Positions 32,767-55,125 of a stretch of 64,000 nucleotides of DNA are shown here, piece by piece. The notes under the pieces are model-generated. The model worked only from the letters and a program-made list of their open reading frames with translations, did not search any database and was not told the origin of the DNA. The translations under genes were made by a program, and so were the position numbers. Position 1 is the first letter of the stretch, and every line of letters starts with the position of its first letter. Origin of the DNA: an uncultured delta proteobacterium (lineage in GTDB: Bacteria > Myxococcota_A > Polyangia > Polyangiales > Polyangiaceae); NCBI GenBank assembly GCA_963782055.1, contig CAWAIF010000003.1, forward strand, positions 2,176,001 through 2,240,000, given 5' to 3'.

Positions 32767-35700
32767 ATGAAGATCGCGCAGGCAGGCAGGCAGGCAGGCA
32801 GGCAGGCAGGCAGGGGTAGGAGCACATGGTTGGCAGTAGCGGGAACGCTCCCCTTCGTGGGCTACGCGGCCATCGGTTGCGGGAGCCATTCCGAGGCCCT
32901 CGGCTCACAGCGCAGCGCCATAGGGCTCGGCGCGCAGCCAGACACGAGTGACCCCTTCAACGCCAACATCGTGGTCCAGTTGTTCACGAACGCCGTCGGA
33001 TGCACCGGGACGCTGATCACGCCAACCGCCGTGCTGACAGCCCGCCACTGCCTGGACGGTGGCGAGGGCATGCCCGTGGGGATGGGCGACACTCCCACCG
33101 TGGGCTTCGGGCCGCACGGCTCGGACCTGACCTTGATGGGCACCGATGGCCATCCGGCGCGTCACGGGGGCCCCGGGCCGGTGACGCAGGCGGCTGGCGA
33201 CCTCGCCGTGGTGGTTCTGGATCGCATTTACCTGAACCACTGGAGCGCAGTCGCACCGACCCTCGCAGAGGCGCCCTGGACCAAGGTGCTCGAGGTCAAC
33301 TGGCACCGGCCCCTGACGCAGGAGGACTCGACCGGCTACTACGCGGCAGGTTGGGGCGGGCCCGGGAAACTATCCACGGACCGGCAGGTGGCGCCGGTAC
33401 CTTCCATCGGCGTCGATGCGGACATTCTCGACTACTTCTACACGAACGGTGACGACGCGGTGGTTCAACATGGGGACTCCGGCGGCCCCCTCTTCGGTCT
33501 CGATGCACAGGGGAAGCGGGTCCAGCTCGGCGTCGCGTCGATGTCTGGCGGCGCAGGTCATGACTTCCACGACATCTGGGTGAACCTCCGCGACAACGGC
33601 TTCCACAACCTGAACTGGCTGGCCGGAGTGATGGTGGATCACCGTCACGACGCCCAGCCGAACTGGCTCAAGCAACACCCGTGGCCCGCGACCACCGCGG
33701 AGCCCTCGCGGTGGATCGGTGAGGCAGACTACGCCGGCCCGTGCGATCAGGCGCACGACGCCGACTGCGATCACTGGTACGAGGACGATCCGACGACCCA
33801 CCAGGACCACGACAACTGCCCCGGGGTCTTCAACCCGGACCAGTGGGACGAGGACGACAATGGTGTCGGCGACGCGTGCGAGGCCGGCGCGTGCGCGTGC
33901 GATCCGCTGGGCCACGACGCCGACGGCGATCGGGTGTGCGAGGTCTACTGCCCCGGCGCGACCAAGGGCCCGATCGACAACTGCCCGACCGTCAAGAACG
34001 CCGACCAGGCGAACTGCAACGCCGCCTTCGAGCACGCGAACCTCCCCACCAAGCCGCCGCTGGGCGACGCGTGCGATCCCATCCCGTGCCCGATGCCGGC
34101 CACGGTGCACTCGCTCACCGCCGATCCGAGCGCACCAGGCTGCGCCGGCTACGGGAAGAACGGCTGCAAGCCCAACGCACCCCCGTACGAGAACACCATG
34201 CAGTGCTGCGGGGCGTCGACGAACGACCGCGTGCACACGGTCACGATCGGCGCCCACCGGATCAACGCGCCGGAGAAGCTGCCGCTGCCGTCGGTCACGC
34301 CGTTCGAGGTGAACGTCGGCGTGGCCAACACGGTGATGCGGTTCTGTCAGAGCGACATCTCGCAGAACATCCGATGTGATGCGAACAACGTGTTGAACGA
34401 CAGCGAGCTGTCGTTCGACGTCCCGTCCACATCCTCGCACCCGTGGCATCGGATCACCTCCCGGCGCATCGCAGGGAACCTCCCCACCCTGCCGGCCTAC
34501 GATCTGGACCTCCAGGGCCTGCAGTACGGGGCGTCCGTCTTCGACGTCCGCTGGCTCTACGCCGACGATCTGGGCACGTGGCTCGCCAACCCCAACGATC
34601 CGGTGATCCCGGGCTGTACCACGGCGACCGACCCCGCGTGCCTGGACGGCACCTTCTGGGTCAACGGGGATACCCTCGTCGGGAAGTCCCCGAACGATAC
34701 CGTCAACGGCCAGGTGGTGGGGTTGCACATCGACGCATTCACTGCGGCCAACCTCACCGGGAGCCTCGCCGACGGCCTCACGCCCATCCATCCTCAGGCC
34801 ACGCTGCTCTGGTGCCCGATCCCTTCTCTCGTGCCGCCGCTGGCGGACACCGGCGGGCCGCTCGGCCACCACGCCGGGCTGATGATCTGGCCTCCCCACG
34901 GCCTGAGCTCCTCCACGCTCGACCAGGGGATCGCCGGCGCCTCTCGCGTCCTCCTCGCGGAGGCCAGCTCCGGCGTCATGGCCGCGCTCCAGGGCGACGG
35001 GACGGCCATCCTCGCCCAGGATCTGACGACGGACACCGGCACCGTGGACTGCGGCGGCGATCAGGTGATGGGCACGGTGCGCCAGATCTCCTTCTCCGGG
35101 GAATCCACCTGGCTGAGCGCGGTGGAGCCGGCGGCGGCCATCCCCGGGCTCACCGCCGACGCGGTCGCCCTCTCCCTCGACGGCACCACGCTTGCGGCGC
35201 TGGCGCAGACCGACGCGGTCACCGGTCAGCTCGGCGCGAGGCCGATCGGGCCGACGGCGGGAGGGGCAGCCGACGCCCAGGGTCCAGTCCCCCGCACGGG
35301 CTACCTGGCGGCGTACTCGCGGAGCGCAGGCGGAGTCTTCGTCGCCGGCGGCACGGCGGCGGCCGACGAAGCCTCGCTGCACGACGTCTGGTTCCGCGCG
35401 CCGGGCGGCGCCTGGACCGACGTGACCCCGCGCGCGACGGGCGGCGGCAACTGCCTGCTCTGCCTGCAGACGCTCGGCCTCGGCGATCTCCGGGCGATCA
35501 CCTACTCCTACGACGACCGGAAGATGTGGATGGTCGACCAGGTGAAGGCGGGCAAGCTGCGCTGGGTGCGGCTGCTGCGCGCCAGCCCCGGCGGGCTGCT
35601 CGAGATGGTGGCGGCCTGGCCGCGCCTCGGCCTGGCGGAGAGCTACTTCCTCTCCGTCGACCACGACGGCTCGGTGCTGCTGTCCCTCGCGCGCGCGAAG

Positions 35701-53691: not shown

Positions 53692-55125
53692 ATGAGGAAG
53701 CGGGCCTACGTGGTGGTCGGAGGGGTTGCGCTCGCGGCGACCGTCGTGGCGCGCTTTGCCGCGTGCTCACCGCCCAGCACGAACGGACCGCCGCTCGTAG
53801 ACGGCGGGGTGTTGGTGCACGTGCACGGCTCCGATGCCCTGCCTGATCCCCCGATCGTCCCAGATGACTCCGACGCGTGGGATGCCGGCGTCAACCCCTT
53901 CACCGGCGATTGGACCCATCTGCCCGGAGATCCCATCAACTGCGGGCTGCGCATCGCCGTGAACCCTGCATCTTCCGTGGGACCACTGAGCTTCGTTCCC
54001 TGCGAATCGGGTCGGCCTGGGTGTCGCAGGCTCGTCGTGGATTGGACCGACAATCCTTACGGGGCCATCTTCTTTCCGGACTTCGACACCGAGCCCGTCA
54101 AGCAGATCGGCGACAAGCGCTACCTCTTGATGGAGCGCCGCTGGCCCCTCGACCCGCAGTTTCAGTATACCGGGGCCACGGCCGCGATCGTGGCGGTCGT
54201 CGACGAGGTGGACGGGCCGCCGGTCTTCGCCGTGGGGACGTTCACTCCACCGCCTCCTTTTCGGTGGTGTGGCTTCATGCCTGCATTCTCGTCGGCGGGT
54301 GTGGCCGTGCACGCCCTTCCGCGGCCCTATCAGTCGTGGGACATCTTCGCGTGGGGTGGGTGGCCGCCATCTTCGAGTTTGACGAGCAAGACATTCCCTC
54401 ACGCGGTCTTCCCGGGAGGTTGCGACTTCTGCGGCAGGGTGACGATCTCGGGCGCTCCGAGCCTGCTGTCGTGCCAGTGCGAGGGTCAGGACATCCCCGC
54501 GCTGTTCAACACGGGGAACCAGGCGCTCACGTTCGTCGGGGCGGCCCCGTTCGTTGGCCGGGATATCTTTTCCGCCGTCAAGGACGGCTGGATCGCCCAG
54601 TCCAACCTCGACCCCGCCGGCATCGATCTCATCCGCCGCGACGGGTCGACGGTTCCGCTCGTCAGGCACCCTCACCGTGTCCTGGCCATGGCTGTGGACC
54701 GGACGGACGGCGACCGGCTGGCGTGGATGGAGGCGGACGAGGTCACCTTCGGCGTGTATGGCCCCGCGACGCTCTGGACCGCGCCCTACGCGGCCACGCC
54801 TGCCTCGCTCGTCGCCCGACGCGTGGCGGTCAGCCCCGAGGACGACGTGGATCCGCTCTGGATCCCGGGCCACGAGATGGTGGTCAACGTGGGCTGCGCG
54901 CTCTTTCGGGCGAGCCGCAAGGTGGCGTACCTGACCCGGCTCACCGACGGGCTGAGCTGGAGCATCCCAGCGGAGCCAGGCCAGGTGTTCACTCGACCGC
55001 TATGGGTGGATTCCGGCGAGGTCTGGCTGGCGACGGCGGACGAGAAGACGCCCACCAAGCCCTTCGGCATCGTCCGGCTGGCGCGCTCCAACCTGGGGAC
55101 GCCAACAGTCGGGCCCGGGCTCTGA
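53692..55125 (+). CDS. Hypothetical lipoprotein (paralog of 35928-37271)
   Basis: FAAC lipobox; GCRRLVVDW, DGDRLAWMEA, LWTAPYA, RLTDGLSW. Confidence 0.8.
   Translation: MRKRAYVVVGGVALAATVVARFAACSPPSTNGPPLVDGGVLVHVHGSDALPDPPIVPDDSDAWDAGVNPFTGDWTHLPGDPINCGLRIAVNPASSVGPLSFVPCESGRPGCRRLVVDWTDNPYGAIFFPDFDTEPVKQIGDKRYLLMERRWPLDPQFQYTGATAAIVAVVDEVDGPPVFAVGTFTPPPPFRWCGFMPAFSSAGVAVHALPRPYQSWDIFAWGGWPPSSSLTSKTFPHAVFPGGCDFCGRVTISGAPSLLSCQCEGQDIPALFNTGNQALTFVGAAPFVGRDIFSAVKDGWIAQSNLDPAGIDLIRRDGSTVPLVRHPHRVLAMAVDRTDGDRLAWMEADEVTFGVYGPATLWTAPYAATPASLVARRVAVSPEDDVDPLWIPGHEMVVNVGCALFRASRKVAYLTRLTDGLSWSIPAEPGQVFTRPLWVDSGEVWLATADEKTPTKPFGIVRLARSNLGTPTVGPGL

Follow-up and report, generated by a model that had tools for sequence, protein, structure and literature searches.

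The window analysed here, a stretch of 64,000 nucleotides from an uncultured member of the Polyangiaceae (assembly GCA_963782055.1, contig CAWAIF010000003.1, positions 2,176,001 to 2,240,000), contains two copies of a gene pair, here called cassettes. In each cassette, the gene of a large multidomain lipoprotein is followed by the gene of a smaller partner lipoprotein. The pair is a real, widespread and unnamed two-gene system with a candidate on/off switch. Its features in the window are the following.

32755..32761, plus strand: Shine-Dalgarno (SD)-like GAGGAGG of the cassette 1 large gene (read from the sequence)
32767..35919, plus strand: cassette 1 large lipoprotein precursor, 1050 amino acids (aa; open reading frame, Pfam, structure model)
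32778..32813, plus strand: (GCAG)9 simple repeat between the cassette 1 start codon and the signal peptide, a candidate phase-variation switch
35928..37271, plus strand: cassette 1 partner lipoprotein, 447 aa, a predicted seven-bladed beta-propeller with a Cys-containing N-terminal extension
37373..37633, plus strand: leftover piece from the 3′ end of a second large-gene allele (93% identity with 35462-35722)
48819..51282, plus strand: cassette 2 large gene, 5′ part, with lipobox (C21), S1 motifs TANHC and GDSGG, TSP3 repeats and Cys-rich middle
51283..52731, plus strand: ISL3-family insertion sequence (IS) interrupting the cassette 2 large gene (PF01610, E 9e-68)
52732..53137, plus strand: cassette 2 large gene, 3′ part, end of the Kelch-like propeller
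53149 (or 53161)..53685, plus strand: small Cys-rich lipoprotein-like gene between the cassette 2 large gene and partner
53692..55125, plus strand: cassette 2 partner lipoprotein, 477 aa

Architecture of the cassettes

For cassette 1 (32767-37271), the composition given by the first-pass annotation, i.e. a lipobox, an S1 protease with triad motifs, TSP3-like and Cys-rich parts and a following lipoprotein, was confirmed by open reading frames (ORFs) and Pfam. The lipobox Cys (C38) of the large protein is followed by the S1 protease at aa ~67-264 (Pfam Trypsin, E 5.7e-9; H94/D145/S238 motifs read from the sequence) and by TSP3-like repeats, which score below the Pfam cut-off, and a Cys-rich part at aa ~320-500; 16 of the 27 Cys lie within aa 301-500. 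A beta-rich middle and a Kelch-like propeller (aa ~727-1050) make up the C-terminal half. The structure model has an overall pLDDT of 61, is good at aa ~780-1050 within the propeller and of low confidence for the S1 head, and Foldseek returned only Kelch and other propeller matches at a TM of about 0.4. The large gene and the partner gene are separated by 8 nt. Compared with the cassette 1 large gene, the 261-bp leftover piece at 37373-37633 has a pN (nonsynonymous differences) of 0.03 and a pS (synonymous differences) of 0.19, indicating that it diverged while still coding. Thus, it is best read as the remnant of another allele.

Cassette 2 (48819-55125) has the same parts, with TSP3 repeats matching PF02412 (E 1.2e-6), but its large gene is not a single ORF; the split by the ISL3 element and the extra small gene had been overlooked. 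The element is bordered by an 8-bp target duplication (51275-51282 and 52732-52739), and its three further copies in the genome, 98-100% identical, show the insertion to be recent. No repeat lies near the start of this large gene. The small gene behind it has no Pfam or NCBIfam match and no paralogue in the genome. Small Cys-rich lipoprotein-like genes adjoin three of five cassettes (window 53149-53685; L001:5496-6041; L002:11030-11557), with no mutual match in a tblastn search from the window gene.

The two copies are homologous but highly diverged, as originally proposed: their partners are 24% identical (E 1e-8) and the C-terminal parts of their large proteins 28% identical over 78 aa (E 9e-9). 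The AT-richer third codon positions also ascribed to both are clear for cassette 2 and mild for cassette 1, the GC content at these positions being 0.90/0.87 in cassette 1 and 0.78/0.82/0.84 in cassette 2 versus 0.96-0.98 in neighbouring genes and a genome median of 0.945. Both heads belong to the S1 family, with 36.6 and 33.3 bits against PF00089 (cut-off 20.6) and His/Asp/Ser motifs. Trypsin specificity would call for an Asp six residues ahead of the catalytic Ser (numbering by offset only), where cassette 1 has Val and cassette 2 has Gly. Asp occurs there in two of 57 scored S1 heads, and the pocket residues vary widely.

Altogether, five cassettes are present in the genome, and partner genes number seven, including a lone one beside IS elements. 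The three cassettes outside the window are located on contig C3. The third (6354428-6350062) is frameshifted just after the lipobox, the fourth (3023346-3028048) has a (GCAGG)13 repeat that puts it out of frame, and the fifth (5312072-5320418) carries a non-protease head of a third type, which we take to resemble a PQQ-type propeller. In the fifth cassette, the 3′ end and the partner gene form a 2.7-kb tandem duplication of 96% identity, and 25 of the 26 changed residues of the duplicated partners fall into the last fifth. In three of the five cassettes, the large gene is interrupted, has a frameshift or is out of frame, while the partner ORFs are whole in all seven cases. A module of ~150 aa with a weak match to NTTRR-F1 (E 1.7e-6, below cut-off) occurs within the Kelch-like propeller of one cassette and as a C-terminal add-on in another (L002:6272-9664 and C3:5312072-5316379 of the present genome). 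The earlier sequence reading had noticed neither the repeat near the start nor the IS, and neither the tandem arrays of partners nor the exchange of heads described below.

Conservation and divergence of the pair

Of 251 genomes of the order searched with profiles, 58 contain the C-terminal region of the large protein and 52 contain the partner; as nine C-terminal and six partner candidates per genome were scored, copy numbers are lower bounds. Across the phylum, the C-terminal region was present in 25 of 301 genomes, and its profile matched 1614 clusters at 50% identity (E up to 1e-10). The closest named relatives are Polyangiaceae and Polyangiales genomes, and named homologues are annotated as 'hypothetical protein'. 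The view of the pair as a conserved, multi-copy module with fast turnover and without a named family is in accordance with these results and with the lack of a library match. A literature search, outside of which supplements and most subscription papers remained, returned no description of the gene pair or of such repeats in this lineage.

Among 111 listed C-terminal matches, 79 loci were fetched, leaving out 32 with open frames below 800 aa. The partner directly follows the large gene in 63 of the 72 informative loci, as scored with a partner profile rebuilt from matches in the fetched loci; nine had no detected partner, six were cut by contig ends and one was not re-scored. Conversely, in 46 partner loci from GTDB, sampled with a search pattern that favours close relatives, we read the upstream large gene as full in 17, partial in nine and absent in 11, with no upstream sequence in nine. 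A large gene or its remnant thus precedes the partner in 26 of 37 informative loci, and 11 partners, three of them in Labilithrix luteola, stand without one. The lipoprotein does not, therefore, usually occur without the large gene, the outcome that would have spoken against the first reading, yet the association from partner to large gene is looser than that from large gene to partner. In at least eight families, and at about 20% identity, the two genes stay within about 60 nt of each other. Of the loci examined, 14 have a further partner or a remnant of the C-terminal part within about 4-7 kb, such a remnant being present in five of them, and the longest array comprises four partners in a row (genome G162). 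Tandem divergent partner pairs, 36-38% identical and with no large gene upstream, occur at L019:5169-8197 and L022:2241-5098.

The large protein combines an exchangeable head with a conserved stalk. After removal of the duplicate loci L049, L037 and L043, 95 distinct large ORFs were classified: 54 carry an S1 head with both motifs, nine an S1 head with one motif missing and 13 an unrelated head of ~500 aa, and 19 heads stayed unassigned, many of these ORFs being frameshifted or cut. The ~500-aa head, whose profile was built from 10 of its 13 members, is Cys-rich and occurs in L050, L052-L059, L062, L109, L011 and L030; it has no match in Pfam or NCBIfam and none in the Atlas, where all leads remained under 0.9. 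The stalk of TSP3, Cys-rich and Kelch-like parts is kept while the head swaps, and the C-termini are homologous across all members whereas the heads vary. S1-bearing members mostly have a pro-region of 13-20 residues before an I/L/V-x-G-G-like start, as read by eye.

The partner model is a seven-bladed propeller with a pLDDT of 87.6. Its best fold match, Sec12 (Z 18.8, root-mean-square deviation 4.0, 295 aligned residues), is tied with many propellers at 6-12% identity, and comparison with the named propeller families BamB, TolB, YncE and WD40 gave flat fold ranks with no family above the others. No sequence match was found in Pfam, NCBIfam or the PDB (the latter at E 0.1). The lipobox Cys is present in 75 of 76 partners. 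With faces assigned from strand order, the 36 conserved positions (>=0.6) belong to strands, to bottom loops or to the N-terminal extension, and none to the 90 positions of the top loops. Many alleles coexist per genome, with a median identity of about 20-23%.

The distribution of conserved partner residues, resembling a fixed dock with a variable binding face, is compatible with a two-subunit feeding enzyme complex at the surface or on vesicles, in which the partner would be an anchor, a folding helper or a substrate-choosing subunit holding the processed large protein, and in which the repeat would vary the secreted enzymes that a cell makes. Both proteins are lipoproteins, all partners share a single fold family, the S1 pockets vary widely, and four other repeat-headed genes of the genome encode S8/S53 peptidases. 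However, bottom loops are commonly conserved in propellers for structural reasons, and the tandem partner arrays, the lone partners (11/37) and the whole partners beside dead large genes would be left unexplained. We regard such a complex as the main alternative to the explanation favoured below; it accounts well for the one fold of all partners, but is rather doubtful.

Partner sequences diverge in step with the large protein. The analysis rests on pairwise distance matrices, for which L036 and L004 were also dropped as duplicates and L002 and L011 were left out of the paired alignments for inserts. In 76 pairs, C-terminal and partner distances correlated with a rho of 0.55, a value reached in 0 of 2000 shuffles, and the nearest neighbour was shared in 44 of 76. 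In the 40 S1-bearing pairs, the rank correlation with the partner was 0.21 for the S1 domain, 0.53 for the middle and 0.53 for the C-terminal region (partial correlations 0.14, 0.30 and 0.32). As the partner tracks the stalk and not the protease, a plain protease inhibitor is unlikely. The inhibitor role considered initially, in which the partner would block the S1 active site as in classical protease-inhibitor operons, draws on the gene order, the prevalence of S1 heads and the weak residual S1 correlation (partial 0.14). It is nevertheless disfavoured by the correlation gradient and the head swaps, since at least 13 of 95 large proteins have another head in place of the protease and yet the partner stays, and we consider it very improbable. 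The partner likely binds the large protein and neutralises or tethers it.

The genes mutM and uvrA do flank the window cassettes, but the functional link to DNA repair suggested by this neighbourhood was rejected: mutM, an aldehyde dehydrogenase gene and uvrA are syntenic without a cassette in five of five congeners, which have zero to three partner matches elsewhere in the genome. Thus, the module moves and its repair-gene neighbourhood is due to chance. The other three cassettes of the genome adjoin unrelated genes. In the five congeners (L153-L157), the gap between mutM and the aldehyde dehydrogenase gene holds other genes, several of them lipoprotein-like, which marks it as a variable spot. 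The uvrA gene (window 43232-48640, minus strand) is a fused double-length form of ~1800 aa kept in all five. Cassette 2 is followed at 55197-63893 by a second transposase (PF21804) and a low-GC protein of 1926 aa with RHS/teneurin-NHL character, so that the region from 48.8 to 64 kb constitutes an island. Low-complexity GC-rich tandem and inverted repeats occupy the intergenic stretch 39065-39420, and a direct repeat of 109 nt with 80% identity is located at 39476-39584 and 42617-42725.

Repeats behind the start codon

The (GCAG)9 repeat begins 11 nt after the ATG of cassette 1, and its nine units keep the frame. A near-identical leader, comprising SD sequence, start codon, first codons and GCAG run, precedes two other genes of the same genome. 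Genome-wide, 17 of 22 repeats with units of 4, 5 or 7 nt lie within 30 nt after an SD sequence and ATG, compared with 9.3% of random sites (p 5e-14) and with 9 of 107 triplet repeats. They head 14 long ORFs, 13 of which have a lipoprotein-like signal directly behind the repeat. Two of the 14 genes are in frame, cassette 1 being the clear one. Eleven further predicted lipoprotein genes, all out of frame, have a 4-7-nt repeat just behind SD sequence and ATG (contig C3 at 1310367, 2265819, 2268530, 2523240, 4430945, 4909853, 5965595, 6819428, 6829682, 6855710 and 6865718; L130-L138); four encode S8/S53 peptidases, one tectonin repeats, and six have no Pfam match. In a congener (L166, G506:C4 ~386500), (GCAG)11 precedes the orthologue, assigned by eye, of the tectonin gene, which here has (GCAGG)4; both are out of frame.

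The same position is used in the homologous loci. A start-proximal repeat is present in 31 of 95, by our own reading in frame in seven, out of frame in 21 and unclear in three, with many different units of 4-8 nt. All 33 non-triplet repeats of these loci lie 5′ of the stalk (219 kb), 29 of them within 30 nt of an ATG, whereas the 596 kb that comprise the stalk and the sequence downstream contain no such repeat. Close orthologues differ in repeat unit or number (L053/L054, L090/L120, L117/L118/L128). The family thus shows several marks of genes phase-variable by simple sequence repeats, namely a non-triplet 5′ repeat, enrichment over background and alleles in and out of frame, and the repeat likely flips the large gene on and off. 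Reads from four runs contained under a fifth of the words; matching fragments, 95-100% identical, extend over parts of the two genes, and one contig from an RNA library crosses the junction between them (35758-35972), which is evidence neither of transcription nor of switching. No contig of the four runs spans the repeat, and two metagenome pattern scans for it gave no match.

Translational phase variation of multi-copy surface genes is well known from the CTCTT repeats of opa and the tetranucleotide repeats of Haemophilus. The present family likewise comprises in-frame and out-of-frame alleles of multi-copy surface genes (compare PMC11868660 and PMC2651432). The poly-G tract of Neisseria pilC, according to an excerpt of PMC13190605, resembles the present repeats in its non-triplet unit and in its place behind the start codon, in the signal-peptide region of a surface gene. 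In contrast to these switches of pathogens, the repeats described here occur in free-living myxobacteria, with many 4-8-nt units at one position of one family. The portion of PMC11868660 on phase variation makes no mention of Myxococcus.

The many broken large genes and the prevalence of out-of-frame repeat alleles could also mean that the two genes merely travel together, the proteins not binding each other and the repeats being mutation hot spots at which costly surface genes decay under phage or grazer pressure. This is quite improbable, as the genes have stayed within about 60 nt of each other in at least eight families with about 20% identity, and as the one position has acquired repeats with many different units.

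Relation to known systems and a proposed mechanism

The logic of the pair is akin to known systems, while its protein families are new. Contact-dependent inhibition (CDI; CdiA-CT/CdiI) and Rhs systems, as portrayed in the sections of PMC3150448 used here, also consist of a large exported protein followed by a cognate partner, with downstream arrays of 3′ fragments plus partners, disruption by IS elements and partners kept when the large gene is silent. The partner directly downstream and the orphan fragment-plus-partner arrays are found here as well. However, in CDI and Rhs proteins a conserved N-terminal region for delivery carries toxin tips at the C-terminus that are not homologous, whereas here the exchanged part is the N-terminal head, and a single homologous Kelch-like domain forms the C-terminus. 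Moreover, all partners belong to one 450-aa propeller lipoprotein family, and CdiB, haemagglutinin and YD repeats are missing. SitA/SitI of Myxococcus outer membrane exchange, according to part of PMC8546572, is similarly a modular, multi-copy, mobile myxobacterial lipoprotein followed by a cognate gene. SitA has a conserved N-terminal escort domain of ~375 aa and a C-terminal nuclease that acts in the cytoplasm (same part of PMC8546572). The present layout is the reverse, the head being a protease or of another kind; Cys residues are numerous and the partner is exported. No SitA-type escort or nuclease domain was matched in NCBIfam or Pfam (15 and 25 proteins scanned), and the C-terminus is Kelch-like.

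TSP3 calcium-binding repeats are shared with the myxobacterial envelope proteins MtsC (NF047638) and TraB (NF033763), which act in cohesion and exchange. This likeness, the many alleles per genome at a median identity of about 20-23% and the lack of a recognisable enzyme in one third of the non-S1 heads would suit a role in cell recognition or adhesion, with the large protein as probe, the partner as cognate receptor on kin, a head that processes the signal and switching that makes subpopulations. We nonetheless judge this unlikely: the MtsC and TraB matches reach 16-51 bits at cut-offs of 350 and 700 and involve the repeats alone, no signalling or membrane-spanning component is linked to the cassettes, and most heads are intact proteases. 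Tip adhesins of the PilY1/PilC type have a variable N-terminal head on a conserved C-terminal propeller, the layout of the large protein. They are also Cys-rich (PMC13190605, in part), but the cassettes feature a lipobox instead of a pilin context and a fixed lipoprotein partner; no PilC Pfam domain was detected in the scanned proteins, and no minor pilin genes were recognised by eye beside the inspected cassettes. The ternary MoxR-vWA propeller systems, as far as outlined in PMC7159879, did not match, as no AAA+ or vWA genes were seen here.

The explanation that we put forward, with a confidence just short of even, is a conflict module: an effector with an exchangeable head on a stalk, a partner that binds the stalk and protects the producer, and a repeat that acts as the on/off switch of the effector. 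Lipoprotein signals are present in both genes. The large protein would probably be cut about 13-20 residues after the lipidated Cys, before the I/L/V-x-G-G-like start; judging from this conserved pattern and from S1 zymogen biology, the cut would make the S1 head active and release it from the lipid of the precursor. The TSP3/Cys-rich/Kelch-like stalk may then aim the head at a surface target on rivals or prey. On the producer surface, the cognate partner would capture the stalk, and immunity would block targeting rather than catalysis, whichever head is carried; both ideas build on the co-divergence. Recombination via the conserved 3′ end could bring in or duplicate partners, which cells would collect in the arrays seen. 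Finally, slippage in the start-proximal repeat would silence the large gene and leave the partner gene intact.

Several observations weigh against such a conflict module. In known systems, the toxic domain is what the immunity protein binds, and different toxin types have unrelated immunity proteins (PMC3150448 and PMC8546572, each in part), whereas the present partner is one family indifferent to the head. Behind nine of 72 large genes, no partner could be detected, and no delivery system is linked to the cassettes. The co-divergence and its gradient along the gene are equally expected from linkage and recombination distance without contact. Positive selection as the force behind the diversifying turnover assumed at first was not supported, as the dN/dS of tandem partners ranges from 0 to 0.64 and is below 1 in 13 of 13 pairs; the differences come in blocks, which fits segment exchange rather than site-wise positive selection. 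They amount to 0.26 on the top face, 0.19 on the bottom and 0.22 on strands, a small excess for the top. As to the switch, 64 of 95 homologues are without a repeat, the out-of-frame share (21 of 28 callable) equals the two-in-three chance expectation (p 0.43), none of six dinucleotide repeats in the genome follows an SD sequence and ATG, and repeat lengths in metagenome assemblies can be wrong.

More tentatively still, the conflict module might represent an undescribed class with an inverted polymorphic-toxin layout, in which swappable heads sit on one TSP3/Kelch stalk, allele-specific propeller lipoproteins kept in arrays confer immunity by locking that stalk, and each effector is switched at random by a repeat in its signal peptide, within a secretome that is phase-variable genome-wide in a lineage of free-living predators. 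What is known of kin discrimination and killing in myxobacteria comes mostly from Myxococcus, while the Polyangiaceae side of the lineage is largely uncultured. Here, an abundant gene pair has come to light in which neither the partner nor the stalk has a family name. If the partner indeed protects by locking the targeting domain, the immunity logic would be unlike that of CDI, Rhs or SitAI. If the repeats act as proposed, they would extend on/off switching in the manner of pathogens to the secreted protease repertoire of soil bacteria.

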